From the NCBI GenBank assembly GCA_963728205.1, contig CAVSIV010000001.1, positions 256,001-320,000 of the forward strand: a DNA stretch of 64,000 nt, in the 5' to 3' direction. Below, piece after piece: positions 24,941 to 39,785 of this stretch. The position numbers and the translations under genes are program-made. The DNA is from an uncultured Chloroflexia bacterium. GTDB lineage: Bacteria; Chloroflexota; Dehalococcoidia; UBA2979. Numbering within the stretch: position 1 is the stretch's first letter; every line of letters begins with the position of its first letter. The notes under the pieces were generated by a model. The model ran no database searches, was not told where the DNA came from, and saw only the letters and a list, made by a program, of their open reading frames with translations.

Positions 24941-25173
24941 CGCCGCAGTGCCGCCGCGGAACGTCGCACGCGTCGAGCGGCGCGTGCTTCGAACGTCGCG
25001 CGCTTCGAGCGGCATCCGGTGAGGATGCTGAGCTCCTGTGCCGCCAGGTCGCGCTGGGCTCCGGATCGCCTCAGCGCCTTGACCAGGCGCCGCTCGAAGC
25101 GGGCGATGCGGACGCGCGGGCGCGCGACTCAGCGCCTCCGCCGGGCGCCGCCCGCTTTGAGCGGCGCCGGGGG

Positions 25174-26040
25174 CTACCCGCCGAGGCGATCCGGGCGCAG
25201 CCGCGCCAGCGAGGCGCGCACCTCGTCGAGGTCCCGCCGGTTGGTGATCCCCGCCCACGTCGCAGGCGTGCGGGTAACGCGCACCGTGAGCGCGCCGTCG
25301 TGCATCAGCCCGCCGATCTCCGTCGGTAGCAGGCACTCCGCCGACGGGTCGTCGCGGTGCGCGGCGAGGAAGGCATCGAAGCGCGGTCGGAGCGCGTCGA
25401 AGATCGACGCGTCGAAGCCCCAGAGGTTCATCGACACCGGCGTCGCCGGGTCGAGCGGAGGGCCGCCGGGCGCGGCGATGGCGCCGTCCGGGCGCCGCGC
25501 GACGCCGTGCGTCTCGGTCAGCGCCGCGAGCACGCCGTCGCGCACGTCGCACACGCCGCGCGACACCGCGCCCTCGGGCGGCACGGTGTGCCCGAGCTCG
25601 AAGGCGACGAGCACCGCGGTTCGGGCGTCGACGGCGTCCAGGGCGCCGACCGCGGCGCCGATCGCCGCGCCGTAGTAGTCGTCCGCGTTGGCGAGCACGA
25701 ACGGGCCGTCGACGGCGGCCGCGGCAGCGAGGACGGCATGCGTCGTGCCCCACGGCTTCGCGCGCGGCGGCGGCAGCTCGTCCTGGTTCACGAGCGTGAG
25801 CGCAGGTGCATCGCGGCGGCCGGCGAGCAACGCCTCGACGTGCCCGCGGACGGCGTCGTGGATCTCGCGGCGCACGATCAGCACGACGTGCCCGACGCCG
25901 GCCGTCACCGCGTCGTGGATCGTGTAGTCGACGATCGCCTCGCCGTGCGGGCCCACGGCTTCGAGCTGCTTGAGGCCGCCGAAGCGCGAGCCGAGGCCGG
26001 CCGCCATCACCACGAGCGCGCGCCGGGCCGCGAACGTCAT
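25174..26040 (-). CDS. Sugar-phosphate nucleotidyltransferase
   Basis: MAAGLGSRFGGLKQ, KPWGT, NADDYYG, SMNLWGF. Confidence 0.85.
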   Translation of the reverse strand: MTFAARRALVVMAAGLGSRFGGLKQLEAVGPHGEAIVDYTIHDAVTAGVGHVVLIVRREIHDAVRGHVEALLAGRRDAPALTLVNQDELPPPRAKPWGTTHAVLAAAAAVDGPFVLANADDYYGAAIGAAVGALDAVDARTAVLVAFELGHTVPPEGAVSRGVCDVRDGVLAALTETHGVARRPDGAIAAPGGPPLDPATPVSMNLWGFDASIFDALRPRFDAFLAAHRDDPSAECLLPTEIGGLMHDGALTVRVTRTPATWAGITNRRDLDEVRASLARLRPDRLGG

Positions 26041-26167
26041 GCGCTGAGGTTCGCGGCCGTGCGCGCTAGCCGCCACCGCCGCGGCCCTCTGTTCGAGCGG
26101 CAGCCGGGTGGGTGCCGATCCCGCTCGCCCCTGGCTAGGATGCGAGCACCACGACGGGAGCCGCCGC

Positions 26168-26806
26168 ATGACGGGCGAGCCAGCACGCCACAGCGCCGTC
26201 GCGATCACGCGCGCCTACGCCGGCGACGCCGCCGCCTACGCGGCGTTCAATGCCGACCGCTCGTTCGCCGAGCCGCTGCTCGACCTGCTCGCGGCCGCGC
26301 TCCCGCCGGGCGGCGCCGTCGTGGATCTCGGCTGCGGCCCCGGCTGGGAGACCGCCGCGCTCGCGCGCCGCGGCCTGCGCGCGCTCGGCCTCGACCTCAC
26401 GCGCGACTTCGTCGCCTTCGCCGCGCGCGAGCACCCCGCCGCCGGCTGCGTGCAGGGCGACTTCCTCGCCCTGCCGTTCGCGGACGGCGCGCTCGACGGT
26501 GCGTGGGCATGCTCCTCGCTCGTCCACCTGCCGAGCGCGCGCGTCGACGACGCCCTCGCCGAGATCCGCCGCGTGCTGCGACCCGGGGGCGCGTTCTTCG
26601 CGTCGATGCAGGCCGGCGCCACGGAGGGCGAGATCCCCAGCGTGAGCTTCCCCGGCAAGCGCTACCACTACGCGTTCTACGACCCGGCGGACTGGCGGGC
26701 GCGCCTCGAGCGCGCCGGCTTCGCGGTGCTCTCGTGGAACGAGCACCCGGGGACGACGAACCCGGGGGCGACCGGCTGGATCGAGTCGCTCGTCCGCCGG
26801 ACCTGA
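26168..26806 (+). CDS. Class I SAM-dependent methyltransferase
   Basis: VVDLGCGPG, LPFADGALDGAW, RVLRPGG. Confidence 0.9.
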   Translation: MTGEPARHSAVAITRAYAGDAAAYAAFNADRSFAEPLLDLLAAALPPGGAVVDLGCGPGWETAALARRGLRALGLDLTRDFVAFAAREHPAAGCVQGDFLALPFADGALDGAWACSSLVHLPSARVDDALAEIRRVLRPGGAFFASMQAGATEGEIPSVSFPGKRYHYAFYDPADWRARLERAGFAVLSWNEHPGTTNPGATGWIESLVRRT

Positions 26807-26895
26807 GCGGGGCGCGCGGGGTGCGCGCGCCCGGTATGCTGCGTCGACGCGGCCGCGGGCGGCCGCGAGCGCGCGTCCGAACCCGCGGAGTGACG

Positions 26896-27588
26896 ATGGA
26901 CTCTCTCGACGTGATCCGCGCCCGTCTCGGCAAGATGACGGAGCGCATCCTCTTCCGCCTCGCCGACCGCGCGGGCTTCCCGCTCAACGCCGCGGTCTAC
27001 GAGCCGGGCGCCGTGCCGATCGTCGGCCGCGCCGGCGTCTCGTTCATGGAATTCGCCGTCGAGGGCCTCGAGGCCTATCACGCATCGCTCGGCCGCTACG
27101 AGTACCCCGACCAGCACGCGCTGACGCGCGCCGCGCGCCCGAACTCCGCCGCGCGTCGCGAGATCGGCGTGCCGGCGCTGCCGCACGTCGACATCGACCT
27201 CAAGGACCGCCTCTTCCGCTTCTACCGGGACGACGTCCTGCCGCGCCTGTGTGCGCCGGAGGCCGACCCGAACACCTACGGCGAGACGGCCTACCTGGAC
27301 GCGGACGTACTCGAGTTGATCCACGAGCGGATCAACCTGGGCCGCTACGTGGCACGCGCGAAGTTCGAGACGACGCCGCAGATGCGCGACCCGTCCCTCT
27401 CCGCCGAGCTGTTGATTGCGCTGTTGCGCGACCCGGCGCAGGAGGAGCGCATCCTCGCCGGCGTGCGGCGCGACGCGCAGCGCTACGGCGTCGACGTTGC
27501 GGTCGCCGAGCGCGTGTTCCGGTGGATCATCGAGCAGACGATCGACGTCGAGGTGGCGTACCTGCGTGCGCTGCCGTCGCTGACGTAG
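26896..27588 (+). CDS. Chorismate mutase, eukaryote-type (ARO7-like AroQ)
   Basis: LDVIRARL, ERINLGRYVARAKF, QEERIL and QTIDVEVAYL parallel recalled yeast/plant CM motifs (RRIHFGKFVAEAKF, TKEVEVEYL). Confidence 0.8.
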   Translation: MDSLDVIRARLGKMTERILFRLADRAGFPLNAAVYEPGAVPIVGRAGVSFMEFAVEGLEAYHASLGRYEYPDQHALTRAARPNSAARREIGVPALPHVDIDLKDRLFRFYRDDVLPRLCAPEADPNTYGETAYLDADVLELIHERINLGRYVARAKFETTPQMRDPSLSAELLIALLRDPAQEERILAGVRRDAQRYGVDVAVAERVFRWIIEQTIDVEVAYLRALPSLT

Positions 27589-27605
27589 CGCGACACCCGT
27601 TTCCG

Positions 27606-27635
27606 TTGACATAGGATCCCGCCCCCCCGTACCGT
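27606..27635 (+). promoter_or_regulatory. Sigma70-type promoter of the trp leader
   Basis: TTGACA (27606-27611), 18-nt spacer, TACCGT (27630-27635), directly upstream of the T-box. Confidence 0.65.
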
Positions 27636-27659
27636 CGGTGCTCATACTTTCGGCGTAGA

Positions 27660-27953
27660 TGACTGACGTCGAACGGGAGTAGTACGCCGCCACGCGGGGC
27701 CCAGAGAGCCGGGGATTGGTGGAAACCCGGCGCCCGACGAGCAGCGGCCGAATGGACCCGGGAGTCTCGACCCGAACCGGCGCCCCGCGGGGCCCGCAGT
27801 AGGCGTCGACGGTGCGGGCGCCGTTATCCAGGCCCAGGACATCGCCCCCGGCAACGGGAGGCCGTGTCCCGCATGAGTCCCCCCGGCGACGGGCGGGAAG
27901 AGTGGGTGGCACCGCGAGGACCATCGCCCCACGGGCGATGGTCCTTTTGTTTT
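27660..27953 (+). ncRNA. T-box riboswitch with Trp (UGG) specifier
   Basis: AGAGAG bulge (~27703), GGTGGAA distal loop (~27718), GAA-TGG specifier (TGG 27753-27755), AGTA and CCGTTA elements, T-box AGTGGGTGGCACCGCG (27901-27916); upstream of trpE. Confidence 0.92.
27917..27953 (+). terminator. Intrinsic terminator of the T-box leader
   Basis: 13-bp perfect stem AGGACCATCGCCC-cac-GGGCGATGGTCCT followed by TTTGTTTT. Confidence 0.9.
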
Positions 27954-27988
27954 GGGTGTGAGCAGACAGCGACCAGAGGAGAGCGGAG

Positions 27989-28117
27989 ATGTCGAACTTC
28001 AGCGCGCAGCATGGCCGGGCGGACCGCATCGAGCGGGGCCGCTGGTGGCGGCGCGCGCTTCGCGGCTCCCCCACCGCTGCCGGCGACCGCGGACGCGGGG
28101 CGTGCCGTGCTCGGTGA
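27989..28117 (+). CDS. Putative Trp-Trp leader peptide (42 aa)
   Basis: AGGAGAGCGGAG then ATG; MSNFSAQHGRADRIERGRWWRRALRGSPTAAGDRGRGACRAR*; stop lies inside the 5' end of trpE. Confidence 0.55.
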   Translation: MSNFSAQHGRADRIERGRWWRRALRGSPTAAGDRGRGACRAR

Positions 28118-29582
28118 GTACACGCCGTCGCTTGCCGAGGTGCGGCACCTCGCGGGGCGCGGCAACGTCGTGCCCGTCTACCGCGAGGTCCGCGCCGACC
28201 TCGAGACCCCCGTCTCCGCCTTCCTCAAGGTCGCGCGCGGGCCGTATTCGTACCTGCTCGAGTCCGTCGAGGGCGGCGAGCGCATGGGGCGCTACTCGTT
28301 CATCGGCACCGAGCCCTACCGGGTGCTGGACGCGCAGCACGCCGACGGCGACCCGCTGATCGAGGTCGAGCGCGAGCTCGCGCGCTTCCAGCCCGTACCG
28401 GTCGCGGGCCTGCCGCGGTTCCACGGCGGCGCGGTCGGCTACCTCGGCTACGAGGTCGTCACGCACTTCGAGCCGCGCGTCCCCATCGGCGGACCGGACG
28501 TGCTCGGCATCCCCGAGTCGTGGCTGATGTTCACCGACACGCTGCTCGTCTTCGACCACCTGCAACACACCATCAAGGCCGTCGCGCACGTGCGGCTCGA
28601 CGGCGACGTCGACGCCTCGTACGAGCAGGCACGCTGGAAGATCGACCAGCTGATCGAGCGGCTCGAGGCGCCGCTCGGCGCGCTCCCCTACGTGCCGTTC
28701 AGCGGCCGCGGCGGCCAGGAGGTGCGCTCGAACTGGGAGCGCGACGACTTCCTGCGGGCGGTCGCGCGCACGAAGGAGCACATCGTCGCCGGCGACATCA
28801 TCCAGGCGGTGATCTCGCAGCGCTTCACCCGCGAGACGGGCGCGCACCCGTTCGAGGTCTACCGCAGCCTCCGCGCGATCAACCCGTCGCCGTACATGTA
28901 CTACCTGCAGTTCGGCGAGACGACGATCGTCGGGGCGTCGCCGGAGCTGCTCGTGAACGTCGAGGACGGCGTCGTGGAGGTGCACCCGATCGCCGGCACG
29001 CGGCCGCGCGGGGAGACGCCGCTCGACGACGAGCGCCTCGCGGAGGAGCTGCGCAACGACCCGAAGGAGATCGCCGAGCACGTGATGCTGCTCGACCTCG
29101 GCCGCAACGACGTGGGCCGCGTGGCGGAGCCGGGCAGCGTGCAGGTCACGCAGCGGCTCGACCTCGAGTTCTACTCGCACGTCATGCACATCGTCAGCCA
29201 CGTGAAGGGGAAGCTGCGCGCGGGGATGTCGCCGTACGACGCGCTGCGCGCCGGGTACCCGGCCGGCACCGTGAGCGGCGCGCCGAAGATCCGCGCGATG
29301 GAGATCATCGCGGAGCTCGAGCCCGACCAGCGCGGCCCGTACGCGGGCGCGGTCGGCTTCTTCGACCTCTCCGGCAACATCGAGACCTGCATCACCATCC
29401 GCACCCTCGTGATGCAGGGCGGCCTCGCGCACGTGCAGGCCGGCGCCGGGATCGTCTACGACTCCGATCCCGTGAAGGAGTACGAGGAGTGCCAGCACAA
29501 GGCGCGCGCGCTGCTGGCGGCCATCGACGACGCCGAGCGCGGCGAGGGCGGCGGCGCGCCGTCCGGCAGCCTGGGCTACTGA
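28107..29582 (+). CDS. trpE: Anthranilate synthase component I (GTG start inferred)
   Basis: DLETPVSAF, LLESVEGGE, NPSPYMY, PIAGTRPRG, EHVMLLDLGRND, GTVSGAPKIRAM. Confidence 0.95.
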   Translation: MLGEYTPSLAEVRHLAGRGNVVPVYREVRADLETPVSAFLKVARGPYSYLLESVEGGERMGRYSFIGTEPYRVLDAQHADGDPLIEVERELARFQPVPVAGLPRFHGGAVGYLGYEVVTHFEPRVPIGGPDVLGIPESWLMFTDTLLVFDHLQHTIKAVAHVRLDGDVDASYEQARWKIDQLIERLEAPLGALPYVPFSGRGGQEVRSNWERDDFLRAVARTKEHIVAGDIIQAVISQRFTRETGAHPFEVYRSLRAINPSPYMYYLQFGETTIVGASPELLVNVEDGVVEVHPIAGTRPRGETPLDDERLAEELRNDPKEIAEHVMLLDLGRNDVGRVAEPGSVQVTQRLDLEFYSHVMHIVSHVKGKLRAGMSPYDALRAGYPAGTVSGAPKIRAMEIIAELEPDQRGPYAGAVGFFDLSGNIETCITIRTLVMQGGLAHVQAGAGIVYDSDPVKEYEECQHKARALLAAIDDAERGEGGGAPSGSLGY

Positions 29583-29593
29583 GGAGACGCGCG

Positions 29594-30535
29594 ATGCCCG
29601 AACCCGGCAAGCCCGATCTCGCCTCCGCCGTCGTGATGATGCGCGACGACGACGCCGTGCTTCTCGTGCGGCACCCGCAGCGCGCCGGTGAGGACGTCGG
29701 TCCGTTCGACGGGCGATGGTCGCTGCCGATGGCCGCCGTCGTCGGCATGGAGTCGGCCGAGGACGCCGTCGCGCGCGTGATGCGCGACCAGCTCCACGTC
29801 GCGCCCGGACCGCTCGAGTTCAACGACACGATCTACATGGTCGGCGGCGACGGCTCGCGCTTCGTCGTGAACGCGTTCCTCGCGGTCGGCTGGGAAGGCG
29901 ACCCGCGCTTCAGCGGGCGCGACTACGCCGACGCCGCGTGGGTCGAGCCCGGCGGCGCCCTCGACCTCGACGGCGAGCTCGCCGACGGCATCGCCGAGTG
30001 GCTCGCGCGCGTCTTCGAGCGCGACGCCACCGCGCTCACGCCCGACGCGCTGCTCGCCGCGCTCGACGCCGCGCGCGCCGAGCTCGTCGCGGCGTTCGAC
30101 GCGATCCCGCAGCGCTACCGCGACGAGCCGCTCGAGGGCGACTGGTCGCCGCTCGACGTGATCGCGCACGCGGCGGACGCGGAGGCGTACTACGCCGCGG
30201 AGACGCGGCGCATCCTCACCGTCCCCGGCCACGCGTGGCAGGGCTTCAACGACGCACAGTGGAGCGAGTCGCGCGCGCTGCGCCGCGCGACCGGCGAGCG
30301 CGACGGCGAGGACGCCGTCCGCGCGCGGCTGGCGCGGGCGCGCGCGAACCTGCGCGGGTGGCTGCGCACGCTCACGCCCGTCGACCTCGACGCCTACGGC
30401 AACCACCCGGAGCGCGGCGTCGTGCAGGTCGGCGACCGCATCGACAAGATTGCGCGGCACGACCGCGAGCACGCCGAGCAGCTCAGGGGGATGGCGCGTG
30501 CCGCCCGCGTGCAGGCCGCGGCTCAGGAGACATAA
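29594..30535 (+). CDS. Fusion of a degenerate NUDIX domain and a DinB/YfiT-family domain
   Basis: VLLVRH...GRWSLP...ESAEDAVAR; WSPLDVIAH...HPERG...HDREH; GAGGAG RBS. Confidence 0.75.
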
Positions 30536-31130
<595 letters not shown>

Positions 31131-31229
31131 GCCGCCGGTCGAACCATGTTGCCGCCGGCGAACGGCTCCGCGTGAGCGGGGTGAGCCGCCGCCACCGCCC
31201 CGTGCCCTCCCGGACGTAAGGAGCGCCCC

Positions 31230-32300
31230 ATGATCAAGGAAGCCATCGCCGCCATCGCCGAGGAGCGCCGCGACCTCAGCGAGGGCGAGGCCGCCGAGGT
31301 GATGCACGAGATCATGCGCGCCGGTCGCGAGCGCACCGACGAAGACGAGGTGCGCGCGACCGAGGCGCAGTTCGGCGCCTTCGTCACCGCCCTCGCCATG
31401 AAGGGGGAGACCGTCGACGAGATCACCGGGATGGCGCGCATCATGCGCGCCTACGCGCTGCATGTGGACGTGCCCGACCGGCCGCTGCTCGACACCTGCG
31501 GCACGGGCGGCTCGCGCCTCAAGAAGTTCAACGCGTCGACCGCGGCGGCCTTCGTCGCGGCCGCGGCCGGTGCGAAGGTGGCGAAGCACGGCAACCGGGC
31601 GGCGACCTCGCAGTCCGGGTCGGCCGACCTGCTGGAGGCGCTCGGTGCGACGGTCGCGCTGGCGCCCGACCAGGTCGCGGAGTGCATCGCCCGCACGGGC
31701 GTGGGCTTCATGTTCGCGCCGGCGATGCACCCCGCGATGAAGTTCGCGGGACCGCTGCGGCCGCAACTCGGCATCCGCACCGTCTTCAACATCCTCGGCC
31801 CGCTCACGAACCCGGCGAACGCGAACTGCCACGTGCTCGGCGTGCCGAACCGGGAGCTCGCGGAGAAGCTCGCGCACGTGATGGCGCGGCTCGGCATGCG
31901 CCACGCGCTCGTCGTGTCGGGCTCGGACGGACTCGACGACATCACGGTCACCGGCCCGACGCACGTCTTCGAGATCAAGGCGAACGGCGTGACGCCGTGG
32001 GAGCTGACGCCCGGCCAGATGGGGCTCGACACGCACCCGTTCGAGGACATCGTGGGGGGCACGCCGCAGGAGAACGCGAAGCTGCTGCGCCAGATCTTCA
32101 ACGCGGAGGGACCGCGCGCGGTGCGCGACCTCGTCGCCGCGAACGCCGGCGCGGCGCTGTACGTGACGGGGCTGGCGTCGTCGATCCGGCAGGGCGTCGA
32201 GATGTCGCTCGAGGTGATCCGCAGTGGCGACGCCGCAGCGCGGCTGGGAGCGTTCGTCGAGGCGACGCGCCGCGTCGGCGCGGCGAAATCGGCGCGATGA
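31230..32300 (+). CDS. trpD: Anthranilate phosphoribosyltransferase
   Basis: KGETVDE, DTCGTGG, KHGNR, GSADLLEALG, RTVFNILGPL. Confidence 0.95.
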   Translation: MIKEAIAAIAEERRDLSEGEAAEVMHEIMRAGRERTDEDEVRATEAQFGAFVTALAMKGETVDEITGMARIMRAYALHVDVPDRPLLDTCGTGGSRLKKFNASTAAAFVAAAAGAKVAKHGNRAATSQSGSADLLEALGATVALAPDQVAECIARTGVGFMFAPAMHPAMKFAGPLRPQLGIRTVFNILGPLTNPANANCHVLGVPNRELAEKLAHVMARLGMRHALVVSGSDGLDDITVTGPTHVFEIKANGVTPWELTPGQMGLDTHPFEDIVGGTPQENAKLLRQIFNAEGPRAVRDLVAANAGAALYVTGLASSIRQGVEMSLEVIRSGDAAARLGAFVEATRRVGAAKSAR

Positions 32301-32328
32301 TTCGCCGCGGGGTCCGGGGGGCGGCGCG

Positions 32329-33254
<926 letters not shown>

Positions 33255-33258
<4 letters not shown>

Positions 33259-34024
33259 CCCTCATCAAGATCTGCGGCCACCGCACGCCGGACGACGTGC
33301 TCGCGGCGGCGAAGGCCGGCGCCGACTTCGTGGGCATCAACTTCGCGCGCTCGCCCCGCCGCGTCGACGCGCAGGAGGCGCAGGCGATGGTGCGTGCGCT
33401 CGGGCCGACGCTCGCCGATCACGAGATGACGCTCCCGCCGCCCGCGCAGCCTCGCGTGCGCGAGGAGGTCGGCCCGTGGTTCCGCCATGGCGCGGAGGTG
33501 ATCGAGGCCTACCTCGCCGTGAAGCGCCCGCTGACGGTGGGCATCTTCGCGGACCAGCCGATCGAGGAGGTCAACGAGCTCGCCGAGGAGGCGGGCGTCG
33601 ACCTCGTGCAGCTGTCGGGCGACGAGACGTGGGAGGACTGCCTGCTCGTCACGAAGCAGGTGATCCAGGTGGTGCACGTGTCCCCGATCGACTCGCCGCC
33701 GGACCCGATGGAGCAGGTGGAGCCGGGCTTCGCGCTCGCGCTCATGCTCGACGCCGCGCACGGCCCGTACCGCGGGGGCAACGGCCTGCCCTTCGACTGG
33801 GAGATCGCACGGCTGCTCTCGGAGCGCATCCCGATCGTGCTCGCCGGCGGGCTGACGCCGGAGAACGTCGGCGAGGCGATCGCCCGCGTCCGCCCGTGGA
33901 TGGTGGACGTGGCGAGCGGCACGGAGACCGACGGCCGCAAGGACTACGACAAGGTGCGCGCGTTCGTCGCCGCCGTCCGCGCCGCCGATGCCGCGGCGCG
34001 CGCGTCGGAGGGAGAGGCCTCGCG

Positions 34025-34028
<4 letters not shown>
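33255..34028 (+). CDS. trpF: Phosphoribosylanthranilate isomerase with internal insertion
   Basis: [31 protein letters not shown]. Confidence 0.93.
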
Positions 34029-35227
<1,199 letters not shown>

Positions 35228-35430
35228 CGCGCCGACGGCGAGCAGCGGCGTGCAGCGGGCTCGACGGGCGCTGCCGGCGATCCGGCGACCGGGCCACGCG
35301 GGGACAGCGGCGCACGGCGGGCGTTCCGCCCGCCGCTCGCAATCCGACGACCGTCGCCACGGGGTCAGGCCGCAGGAGCGGGCCTGACGCCCGCTGTGCG
35401 CCTGCGGTGCGCCGAACGACCGGCAGCGCG

Positions 35431-36474
35431 CTACGCGGGCCGCTCGCTCCCACGGCGCAGTGGCGCCGACACCGCGTGCAGGTGGCCGAGGATCGCGCGC
35501 ATCGACCCCATCGCGCTCGTCTCCGCGTACGGCAGATCCGCCTCGGCGCAGAACGCCCGCACGATCGGCTGCGCGCGGTGCAGATTGTTGCGCGGCATCG
35601 TCGGGAAGAGGTGGTGCTCGACCTGGTAGTTGAGACCGCCGTAGAAGAGGTCCGTGAACCAGTGGCCGCGCACGTTGCGGCTCGTCAGCACCTGTCCGCG
35701 CAGGAAGTCGAGGTCGGCGTCGGCGGCGAACACCGGCATGCCCTTGTGGTTCGGCGCGAAGACCATGCCGTTGTAGACGCCCGAGATGCCCTGGCTGATC
35801 GCGAAGTAGCCGAGCGCCATCGGCCACCCGAGGTGCGTGAGCAGCAGCGCCCAGAACGCGACGTGCCCGGCGAGCGCCAGGCCTTCCCACACGCGGTGCC
35901 GCGGTGCGTCCGCGATCACGTGCTCGATCGCGCGCACGTGCATGTTCAGCGCCTGGAACGCGGCCAGCACGAAGAACAGCGGCGCCTGGTGCGCGATCAC
36001 CGGCCGCCAGAACGCGGACTTCTCCGCGATCTGCTGCTCGTCGAATGCCAGCATCGGGAACTCGATGTCCGGATCGCCGCCCAGCACGTTCGGCTTGCCG
36101 TGGTGCGCGTTGTGCTTGCGCGACCACCACGAGTAGCTGATGGCGACGAGGAAGTCGCCGACGATGATGCCGAGCACGGTCACCATGCGCCGGCTGCGCA
36201 CGATCTGGCGGTGCTGCAGGTCGTGACCGATCAGGCCGACCTGCGTCGTCATCACGCCCCCGGCCGCGGCCAGCAGCAGCACCAGCGGGCCGTGCACGAA
36301 GAAGGGCGCGGCGAGCACCGCGGCGTACACGGCGAGCGTGATCGCGATCTTGCGCGCGTAGTACGCCGGCTGCGTGTCGAGCAGTCCGGCGGCACGGATG
36401 CGTGCTTTCAGGGTGGAGTACTGGGCAGGGCGCGTGGACGTGCGAGCCGGCTCGAGCGCGGCGGCGAGGGTCAA
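35431..36474 (-). CDS. Membrane fatty acid (acyl-lipid/acyl-CoA) desaturase, front-end-like
   Basis: His boxes HDLQH, HNAHH, QVEHH; several TM segments. Confidence 0.9.
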
Positions 36475-36626
36475 AAGGCAATTCCCAACAAACGCGGAGG
36501 TGATGACCTGCGCGCCACGCCCGCAGGCGAGCGCTCGGTCGAGAGGTTTTCAGTGTAGCGGCCGCGAGCGTCGCGTGCCGATGTCGCCGGCGGCGCGATC
36601 CGGGGCCGGGCGCTACGCTCGTTCGC

Positions 36627-37370: not shown

Positions 37371-38170
37371 CGACGGATCGCATCGCCGAGATGTTCGCGC
37401 GGACGCGCGCGGAGGGCCGCCCGGCGATCATCGTCTTCGCGCCCGCCGGCTGGCCGGAGGCCGGCGCGACGGCCGACATCATCGCGACGGCCGTGGACGC
37501 CGGCGCCGACGCCTTCGAGGTGGGCCTGCCGTTCAGCGACCCGCTCGCCGACGGCGTGACCAACCAGGAGGCGTACCAGCAGGCGCTCGCGCTTGGCGCG
37601 AACACGGAGACCGTGCTGGCCTCCGTGCGCGAGGCGCGCGACCGCGGCGTCACCGCGCCGCTCCTGATCATGGGGTACTTCAACCCGCTGCTCGCCTATG
37701 GCCTGCGTCGCTTCACACAGGACGCCGCCGCCGCGGGGGTCGACGGGCTGATCATCGTCGACCTGCCGCCGAACGAGGCGGGCGAGCTCGAGGCGCCGGC
37801 GCGCGAAGCCGGCCTGCACCTCGTCTTCCTGCTCGCGCCCACGTCGACCGAGGACCGCATCCGCGCCGTCGCCGAGCACGCGGGCGGCTTTATCTACTGC
37901 GTGAGCGTCACCGGCGTGACCGGGGCGCGGGACGAGCTCCCCGAGGACCTCGGCGCGTTCCTCGGCCGCGTGCGCCGCGCGACCGACCTGCCGCTCGCCG
38001 TCGGGTTCGGCATCTCGGCGCGGCGGCACGTGGAGGCCGTGGGCCGCGTCGCCGACGGCGCCGTGATCGGAAGCGCGTTCGTCCGTACCATTGCAGATGG
38101 ACCCATCGCGGAGCGCGCGGAGCGCATCCGCCGATTCCTGGGGGGACTCACCGGTCGTGTGTCTGGATGA
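37367..38170 (+). CDS. trpA: Tryptophan synthase alpha chain
   Basis: GTG start overlapping the CPBP stop; [32 protein letters not shown]. Confidence 0.95.
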
Positions 38171-38352
38171 CCTGCGGCAACCGCACGAGCACCCGTGGCT
38201 CGGGAGCTTCGCGTCGTATACGCGGAGCCACGCGGTGCCGGCCGTCCCGACCGCGGCCGGTCCGTTTGGCTCCTGACTCCCTGCGGGCGCGGCCGTGTGC
38301 CGCCGGCCCGAGGTCGCTGGCAGCGAGTGCGAACGAACGGAGCCCCCGCGGC

Positions 38353-38739
38353 ATGCTCGTCCGAGGCATCAGAGGCGCGACCACCGTCGCGGCCAACACG
38401 CGCAACGACATCCTGCGAGCGGCCGACGAGTTGCTCGGGGAGTTGGTGCGCGCGAACGCCATCGAGCGGGACCTGGTGGCTTCGATCCTGTTCACGACCA
38501 CGCCCGACCTCAACGCCGAGTTCCCGGCCGTCGCCGCCCGTGAGGCGGGGTGGACGGAGACGGCCCTCGAGTGCGTACATGAGATGAACGTCCCGGGCAG
38601 CCTCGCGCGGTGTCTGCGCATCCTGATGCACGTGAACACCGACCGGCCGCTGTCCGAGATCAAGCACGTCTCCCTCCACGGCGCGCGCGTCCTGCGGCGC
38701 GACCTGGCCGGTGACGAGATGGCGGAGGCCACCAGGTGA
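38353..38739 (+). CDS. aroH: Chorismate mutase, AroH class
   Basis: VRGIRGATT, DLNAEFPA, EMNVPGSL..CLRIL. Confidence 0.93.
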   Translation: MLVRGIRGATTVAANTRNDILRAADELLGELVRANAIERDLVASILFTTTPDLNAEFPAVAAREAGWTETALECVHEMNVPGSLARCLRILMHVNTDRPLSEIKHVSLHGARVLRRDLAGDEMAEATR

Positions 38740-39785
38740 TTGTGATCATGAAACTCGGGCACGAGCCGGAGCAGCGCGACGCGGTGATCCACCGCATCAC
38801 GGAGCTCGGCCTCAGCGCGCAGCCCATCTACGGCGAGACGCGCACGGTGATCGCCGTGCTCGGGCAGGTCATGCCCGAGCTGAAGGACGAGCTGTCGACC
38901 ATCGACGGCGTCGACGAGGTGCTGCGCGTCTCGAAGCCCTACAAGCTGTCGAACCGCGAGGTGCACGTCGACGACACGGTCGTCGACGTCGGCCACGGCG
39001 TGAAGGTCGGCGGCGGGCGGCCGGTGTTCATGGCCGGGCCGTGCTCGATCGAGTCGCTCGATCAGCTGCACGCCGCAGGCGTGGGGGTGAAGGCGGCCGG
39101 GGCGCACGTGCTGCGCGGCGGCGCGTTCAAGCCGCGCACGTCGCCGTACTCGTTCCAGGGTCTCGGGCTCGCCGGCCTGAAGATGCTCAAGCAGGTCGGC
39201 GACGAGCTGGGCATGCCGACGATCACCGAGCTGCTCTCGGTGCGCGACGTCGAAGCCGTGGCGGAGCACGCCGACATCCTGCAGATCGGCGCGCGCAACA
39301 TGTCGAACTTCGTGCTGCTGGCGGAGGCCGGGAAGACCGGCAAGCCGGTGATGCTGAAGCGCGGCCCGGCGAGCACGATCGAAGAGTGGCTGCTGGCAGC
39401 GGACTACATCCTCAACCAGGACAACCCGAACGTGATGCTCTGCGAGCGTGGCATCCGCACCTTCGAGACCGCGACGCGCAACACCCTCGACCTCAATGCG
39501 GTCGCGCTGGCGAAGCGCCTGAGCCATCTGCCGGTGATCTCCGACCCGTCCCACGGGACGGGCAAGTGGTACCTGGTGCGGCCGATGTCGATGGGCTCGA
39601 TCGCCGTCGGCGCGGACGGCCTGATGATCGAGGTGCACCCGAACCCGGATCACGCCCTGTCGGATGGCGCGCAGTCGCTCACGCCGCGCAACTTCGCGGA
39701 GGTGGCGGCCGAGGCGCGCGCGCTGGCGGCGGCGATCGGGCGGCCGTTCGCGGACGCGCTGCCGACGGCCGTGGCCGCGGGCTAG
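38736..39785 (+). CDS. aroF: DAHP synthase (type I-beta) with N-terminal regulatory domain
   Basis: [41 protein letters not shown]. Confidence 0.95.

Follow-up and report, generated by a model that had tools for sequence, protein, structure and literature searches.

Textbook trp operons rely on one RNA-level sensor, be it TRAP, a T-box or a leader-peptide attenuator, and to our knowledge the only described stack of a T-box and a Trp-codon leader controls an anti-TRAP regulator, in Bacillus. The leader peptide of that system, rtpLP, is about 10 codons long, and the papers cited for the system, in which the regulator gene is rtpA, are those of Chen and Yanofsky (2003, 2004). Here we describe a comparable layout placed directly before a biosynthetic gene. 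In a 64,000-nucleotide stretch of DNA from an uncultured Chloroflexia bacterium (the window; 72.7% G+C), a Trp-specific T-box is followed by a short open reading frame (ORF) that contains two tandem Trp codons and runs into trpE, and we consider it probable that the two elements form a two-tier tryptophan sensor before the biosynthetic trp operon, the T-box acting first and a translated leader then gating trpE initiation by occlusion.

In an extract of PMC2311275, the at operon of Bacillus subtilis consists of a Trp T-box, then the rtpLP leader peptide, then rtpA (anti-TRAP), with complete translation of the leader inhibiting, and stalling within it permitting, translation of the downstream gene; the corresponding extract of PMC10327191 uses the wording "tRNA-dependent ribosome stalling" for this operon. 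A reading of the window made from its sequence alone (the sequence-only reading) had named rtpA as the precedent for a T-box combined with a Trp leader outside a biosynthetic trp operon. The trp leaders of Corynebacterium and Streptomyces carry a terminator and an antiterminator after their Trp codons, whereas other leader ORFs of high-G+C bacteria, namely the LEU element that precedes leuA and the Mycobacterium leaders with Cys codons, lack terminators (extracts of PMC1262725). Closer in phylogeny, Dehalococcoides has a Trp T-box before trpE, and in the available part of the report the T-box is described alone (Wels et al. 2008, PMC2494555).

The elements of the present locus are, in coordinates of the window:

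27660..27934, + strand: Trp-specific T-box leader RNA (cmscan match to RF00230, 44.1 bits, E 1.7e-7, model positions 1-219)
27916..27955, + strand: intrinsic terminator of the T-box (14-bp stem 27916-27946, then the T-run TTTTGTTTTG)
27976..27988, + strand: Shine-Dalgarno (SD) region of the leader (GAGGAG 27976-27981, GGAG 27985-27988)
27989..28117, + strand: leader ORF, ATG to TGA, 42 codons (read from the sequence; same module in 33 other distinct loci)
28043..28048, + strand: tandem Trp codons TGG TGG (leader codons 19-20; read from the sequence), the putative stall site
28107..28117, + strand: 11-nt overlap of leader and trpE (trpE GTG at 28107, leader TGA at 28115-28117)
28107..29582, + strand: trpE, anthranilate synthase component I, 491 aa (Pfam Chorismate_bind 2.9e-90, Anth_synt_I_N 3.7e-28)

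Every feature of the leader that the sequence-only reading had proposed is in place: the SD, a 42-codon ORF whose only Trp codons are TGG-TGG, and a stop 11 nt into trpE. Its SD region begins with GAGGAG about 20 nt past the T-run of the terminator, and AGGAGAGCGGAG (27977-27988) abuts the ATG at 27989. The Trp codons lie 58 nt 5' of the trpE start and about 90 nt beyond the T-box terminator. No Pfam family matches the 42-aa peptide, MSNFSAQHGRADRIERGRWWRRALRGSPTAAGDRGRGACRAR.

To ask of this arrangement how widely it is shared, we gathered trpE loci from 30 genomes (this one and relatives) and 25 loci from public records of metagenome-assembled genomes (MAGs) of Dehalococcoidia and Chloroflexi, and kept 50 distinct loci after removing four duplicates and one locus without its N-terminus; all 41 genomes that were searched had a trpE homologue. 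In 34 of the 50 distinct loci, an ORF of 34-54 codons with an SD before it and a Trp cluster within it stands just 5' of trpE; these loci are this genome, 16 of the 23 other genomes of its family (f1) that yielded a locus, and 17 of 20 further distinct MAG loci. The sequence-only reading had looked to relatives for conservation of the SD, the start and the Trp codons, and these 34 loci provide it. Most related loci have a GGAG, GAGG or AGGA motif ahead of the leader start that was chosen, and the Trp clusters take the forms WW, WWW, WRW, WCW and WWRWW, with up to five Trp. Two further f1 loci appear by eye to have kept the ORF but not as many of its Trp codons: in L014 these are leader codons 19 and 26, and L019 has a single Trp and a GTGA overlap.

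Chance was assessed with 300 dinucleotide shuffles of the spacer of each locus. Of the 35 T-box-motif loci with a spacer of at least 60 nt, 32 have a Trp-rich ORF whose end is close to the trpE start, as compared to a mean of 3.8% of shuffles, and 28 of 35 do as compared to 0.8% when an SD is also demanded, figures that are not a probability because the loci are kin and do not count as independent trials. By this comparison of sequences the leader ORF is far beyond chance, and the two-tier idea as first put forward, a T-box followed by a Trp-codon leader acting on trpE translation, draws strong support from the 34 conserved loci and from this excess over shuffles. One could instead envision TGG-TGG and the ORF as by-products of an untranslated RNA element (GGUGGC, for instance, as the remnant of a second T-box motif) or of chance in DNA that is 73% G+C. 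By eye TGGTGGCGGCGCG does look like GGTGGCACCGCG, and the coding signature of the leader is weak, as described below. We nevertheless hold this to be very improbable: cmscan at E up to 1 gives one T-box in 25000-31000, ending at 27934, well short of the Trp codons some 90 nt past the terminator; the TGG codons of spaced clusters (WRW, WCW, WRWPGWRAWRGW) are separated by multiples of 3; SD, start and overlapping stop share one frame in the 34 chosen loci; and shuffles yield such an ORF at rates of only 0.8-3.8%.

The start of trpE, on which the overlap depends, finds support at GTG 28107, as had been proposed, because homology to TrpE in 40 relatives reaches back to residues 1-6 of the protein read from this codon and because six relatives (L003, L004, L005, L007, L016 and L034) have an ATG at exactly its position. 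The sequence-only reading had allowed for an indel in the assembly, with ATG 27989 as the true trpE start and the two frames really one, and the high third-position G+C (GC3) of the leader frame in 27970-28060 would suit such an error. This explanation is hardly credible, and we regard it as excluded, since the two-frame layout with a stop inside trpE is kept in relatives of many genera, six of them with their own ATG at the position of GTG 28107, and since TrpE homology sets in at residues 1-6; an environmental contig of a relative, which spans 27976-28205 with a net indel of -6, points the same way, if weakly, being a single contig of low depth. No RNA run was found to contain this stretch of DNA, and the DNA runs found cover small shares of it, through contigs of relatives that leave parts uncovered.

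What the 34 loci have in common is geometry. The first Trp of the cluster is at leader codon 16-25 (median 19), and the last Trp codon is 43-86 nt 5' of the trpE start (median 52.5), within 43-62 nt in 31 of 34 loci. In 32 of 34 the leader stop overlaps the trpE start, by 4 nt (ATGA) in 19 loci, 8 nt in 5, 11 nt in 6 including this genome and 17 nt in 2; of the two leaders without overlap, one (L055) stops 1 nt and the other (L017) 42 nt short of trpE. Of all leader residues, 7.6% are Trp, and TGG triplets between leader start and trpE start over the 34 loci number 100, 15 and 9 by frame relative to the leader. Close relatives differ by substitutions in similar numbers at the three codon positions (155, 182 and 163), and the peptides have diverged nearly throughout. 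As far as these comparisons tell, the sequence of the peptide is not under selection, whereas the frame, the Trp codons and the place where the ORF ends are kept, a pattern typical of regulatory leader peptides and one that speaks against a functional small protein.

Two side observations concern the cluster itself. Its distance from the leader start hardly varies, at about two ribosome footprints, though the residues between drift. In four loci (L039, L042, L012 and L052), which belong to two separate clades, the middle Trp has been replaced by Cys (WCW, TGG to TGC), and sister loci have WWW. A hungry-codon frameshift from the leader into the trpE frame was also weighed, since most loci have an open trpE frame upstream of the gene, and was rejected: a stop intervenes in L017, trpE has its own SD and start, and UGG-UGG-C is not slippery.

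The sequence-only reading had further proposed how the leader would act, namely by what would be an ermC-like attenuation, in which the stretch 3' of the Trp codons pairs with the SD and start of trpE and a ribosome at the tandem Trp codons breaks the helix. The pairing elements are:

28053..28064, + strand: 5' arm of the proposed helix, GCGCGCTTCGCG, complementary to 28094-28105
28094..28105, + strand: 3' arm, CGCGGGGCGTGC, which holds the weak trpE SD (GGGG, 28097-28100); complementarity of 12 pairs, 3 of them G-U

The complementarity is real and a 12-bp helix can be drawn, and in the closest relatives UUCG can face CGAG of the trpE SD. Folding did not bear the helix out. The region 27955-28135 folds worse than its shuffles (z +1.1). 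The helix appears neither in its minimum free energy (MFE) structure nor in the ensemble, where the stretch flanking the Trp codons (W-6 to W+24) has 0.2 expected pairs with the trpE ribosome site here and fewer than 1 in 31 of 34 loci. Folding with and without a ribosome-sized block at the Trp codons, another test suggested with the idea, did not open the trpE site: its opening energy is 16.1 kcal/mol here with or without the stalled ribosome, a change of -0.02 kcal/mol. Over the 34 loci the same block changed the opening energy by a mean of -0.39 kcal/mol as compared to +0.16 kcal/mol for equal blocks elsewhere, with 13 of 34 loci beating their controls, and a block over the entire 5' part, to mimic queued ribosomes, lowered the mean only from 7.75 to 7.49 kcal/mol and left the value of this genome at 16.1 kcal/mol.

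Comparison with relatives was no more favorable. On seven aligned relatives the helix is 67.9% paired; this exceeds the 35-46% obtained when the partner is slid by 1-3 columns, a control that is biased, the helix having come from one of the aligned rows, but with shuffled columns the figure is 65.3%, and 117 of 500 such shuffles do at least as well as the real alignment. The alternative register, which was to cover the trpE start as well, scores below its shuffles. Thus the claim that stalling at the tandem Trp codons frees the trpE SD from this helix finds the MFE structure, the ensemble, the block test and the seven relatives all against it, and we think an ermC-like mechanism unlikely. More generally, a conserved SD helix opened by a stalled ribosome was not found in equilibrium folding or in the seven aligned relatives, and a conserved SD-sequestering switch is not supported by folding of this kind, whose reach does not extend to a kinetic switch. 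Pairing of a different, long-range kind is predicted in modest excess between the leader start region and the trpE start region (summed expected pairs 142.6, as compared to 88.9 with sd 14.7 in shuffles; 0 of 30 shuffle sets reach it), but the excess is carried by a few clades (L012/L052, L039-42/L050, L011/L033 and L013) and is absent in this genome (1.17 versus 1.94).

The T-box tier, in contrast to the leader, is ordinary. The T-box itself is real, judging from its sequence features, although its 44.1 bits fall below the Rfam gathering score of 93 (relatives score 30-107 bits). The aligned specifier region contains the specifier loop GAA-UGG-A at 27750-27756, with the UGG codon at 27753-27755 followed by a purine, and GAA-TGG-A recurs in 32 of the 36 loci that have a T-box sequence motif among the 50 distinct loci. 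At 27905-27916 is the T-box sequence GGUGGCACCGCG, whose UGGC fits the tRNA-Trp(CCA) of this genome (discriminator G, then CCA) as expected of UGGN pairing. The terminator hairpin 27916-27946 is the sole terminator-like site in 27400-28500 (shuffle mean 0.2) and overlaps the 3' side of the aligned antiterminator, which on sequence features makes it a competing terminator. Across the 4.1-Mb assembly (89% complete), a search with RF00230 at E up to 0.01 returned the trp T-box and no ileS-type or other T-box. The normal tRNA-Trp of the genome is 77 nt long, on C1; a second "tRNA-Trp(cca)" called by ARAGORN (C6:1288426-1288523, minus strand), 98 nt and very rich in G+C, looks spurious.

How might the two tiers work together? 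In the first, uncharged tRNA-Trp would pair with the UGG specifier and the UGGC bulge and stabilize the antiterminator, which would let RNA polymerase through the terminator at 27916-27955. In the second, when charged tRNA-Trp is plentiful, ribosomes would reach the leader UGA and come to lie on top of the trpE start region, such that elongating and terminating leader ribosomes would control access to the SD and start of trpE, most likely by occluding independent initiation. When charged tRNA-Trp is scarce, ribosomes would stall at leader codons 19-20, 58 nt before the trpE start, and stalled ribosomes, at least 43 nt upstream across the loci, would leave the trpE site clear to load a ribosome of its own. 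Rho, which the genome encodes, could in addition terminate untranslated trpE RNA. The anatomy and its conservation are shown, as is the lack of a conserved RNA switch; translation of the leader, a rise in TrpE synthesis upon stalling and occlusion as the cause are what we infer. Relief of occlusion requires independent initiation, and the SD-like motif that trpE has of its own in 31 of 34 loci therefore supports it. As to direction, stalling would switch trpE on; we prefer this on grounds of logic and of the Bacillus precedent, because only this direction explains why the Trp codons have been retained.

Alternatively, the leader could be coupled positively to trpE, ribosomes that finish the leader restarting at trpE, in which case stalling would lower TrpE or the leader would merely load ribosomes past the long T-box RNA. 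The stop/start overlap in 32 of 34 loci, ATGA in 19, is what such coupling would look like, the trpE site here is weak and strongly structured, and with Rho present early loading of ribosomes could matter. However, positive coupling gives no reason to keep Trp codons, and TGG is held in frame at a fixed place while the peptide drifts; a drop in TrpE upon Trp starvation would presumably oppose the T-box; trpE has its own SD in 31 of 34 loci; and relatives with a T-box only do without a leader. We accordingly judge positive coupling improbable as the explanation of the module.

Several observations nevertheless weigh against gating by occlusion. The main uncertainty is that an ATGA stop/start overlap is the classic geometry of positive coupling, under which stalling would lower TrpE. 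Independent initiation may be poor in this genome, where trpE has a weak ribosome site (GGGG, GTG) for which strong pairing is predicted. The coding signature of the leader is faint: GC3 is the highest of the three positions in only 22 of 34 leaders and G+C at the second position (GC2) is not low, gap runs between relatives are multiples of 3 in 19 of 65 cases, which is no enrichment, and the count of TGG triplets by frame given above is inflated because the leader frames were picked partly for their Trp content. The kinship of the loci and the low score of the T-box match, both given above, belong in the same balance.

With these points in mind, we return to occlusion and put forward its fullest form tentatively, at somewhat less than even confidence: a family-wide, structure-free "termination-overlap" attenuator stacked on a T-box, in which the finishing ribosome ends on the trpE start and gates initiation, and a ribosome stalled at a fixed distance (codon ~19; 43-62 nt before trpE) leaves the site open. 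No earlier case would then be on record of a biosynthetic trp operon that senses the charging of tRNA-Trp twice in tandem, in transcription and in translation, and the attenuator would have arisen in one Dehalococcoidia family on an older T-box.

Measured against described systems, the locus comes closest to rtpLP-rtpA. As far as the extract of PMC2311275 describes that operon, both have a Trp T-box upstream on the same transcript, then, past the terminator, a short ORF with consecutive Trp codons that stops at the ribosome site of the regulated gene, and in both the two tiers sense charging of tRNA-Trp. They differ in that the regulated gene is biosynthetic trpE here and a regulator of TRAP there, in the phylum, which here is Chloroflexota, in the leader, which at 34-54 codons is longer here (the present one by four times), and in the leader stop, which here lies inside the downstream gene (ATGA, or an overlap of 8-17 nt). 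A mechanism resembling that of rtpLP-rtpA seems the likelier one, given this likeness of layout.

The classical trp attenuators (enterobacterial trpL and the actinobacterial leaders) share two or three tandem UGG codons 5' of trpE and the sensing of charged tRNA-Trp by stalling, but here the sole terminator precedes the ORF, which itself extends into trpE; the stretch 27956-28500 lacks any terminator-like site of the sort that a trpL-type attenuator would have, and cmscan at E up to 1 matched no Trp_leader RNA family. The trpE T-box of Dehalococcoides is of the same riboswitch class, before the same gene and in the same phylum; unlike what is given of it in PMC2494555, the locus here also has a leader ORF. 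The LEU element and the Mycobacterium Cys leaders share with the present one a short ORF, a run of cognate codons, the lack of a terminator and a suggested action on the downstream ribosome site; according to the extract of PMC1262725, however, the codon run of the LEU element pairs with the SD in a conserved pseudoknot, while we found no conserved pairing here, and neither type of leader is described there as stacked on a T-box.

Within the class, a T-box 5' of trpE is widespread, and the leader is not. Other families have only 25-85 nt between the end of the T-box and trpE, and no leader there (L026, L028 and L031, and likewise L051); L023, the sister of L051, has a terminator-like hairpin and no cmscan match. 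Four loci of family f1 (L020, L021, L024 and L029) have neither T-box nor leader, and the upstream regions of L021, L024 and L029 are only 27-40% G+C. The gene trpS has entered the arrangement in two ways: L025 and L043 have the order T-box, trpS, trpE without a leader, whereas L012 (genome G005) and L052 have a Trp leader between trpS and trpE, with the T-box 5' of trpS in L012. The leader of this last clade (W..WCW; L111:795-1108) lies about 40 nt past the trpS stop and ends with ATGA on trpE. From its position between trpS and trpE it follows that the leader belongs to trpE and not to the terminator, an attachment that fits an action on trpE translation. On a quick TrpE tree the leader fills most of family f1, with T-box-only forms in other families, and as a label it is clustered (8 changes versus 13.7 in shuffles, 0 of 500 as low); the starred branches of this tree force at least 6 changes, and it does not settle a single origin.

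Downstream, the trp operon continues beyond trpE, as far as it was identified, over 29600..35227 on the + strand, each gene assigned by Pfam:

29600-30535, + strand: NUDIX-DinB ORF
30537-31130, + strand: trpG
31230-32300, + strand: trpD
32224-33258, + strand: trpC
33255-34028, + strand: trpF
34025-35227, + strand: trpB-like PALP enzyme

No trpA was identified 3' of the trpB-like gene (35228-36560), and neither the long + frame 33988-36558 nor the stretch 35224-36030 matched a Pfam family. The NUDIX + DinB_2 ORF, 311 aa, is wedged between trpE and trpG, with an overlap of a few bases with the end of trpE. Directly 5' of the T-box is a gene resembling chorismate mutase (CM_2, 26866-27588, + strand), separated from trpE by a spacer of 518 nt, and 3' of the operon are a CM_1 chorismate mutase (38167-38739) and a DAHP synthase (38736-39785), both on the + strand. 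With aromatic-pathway genes on both flanks, the trp operon looks like part of an aromatic supra-operon, to judge by gene content. A wider regulon of such leaders was sought by scanning the genome for further leader ORFs in which rare residues form runs and which overlap a long ORF; the 139 candidates were mostly out-of-frame inside genes, the two WWW candidates checked lay one inside a DAO oxidoreductase gene and one before an ORF without a family, and the scan gave no evidence of a wider leader regulon.

A full-text search of the literature, outside subscription journals, returned no T-box combined with a Trp-codon leader before a biosynthetic trp operon. The leader is a conserved regulatory ORF that annotation pipelines have missed in these genomes, and its loci offer naturally occurring variants with which to ask how a neighboring start can be gated by nothing more than a ribosome that stalls or terminates, with overlaps of 4, 8, 11 and 17 nt or none, leaders with trpS inserted upstream, and sister lineages with a T-box only. 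The module has been kept across many genera while the peptide drifted and no RNA switch is detectable in it, and if both tiers act as we propose, the double-sensor logic would here govern the biosynthetic operon itself, in an uncultured Chloroflexota lineage of high G+C.

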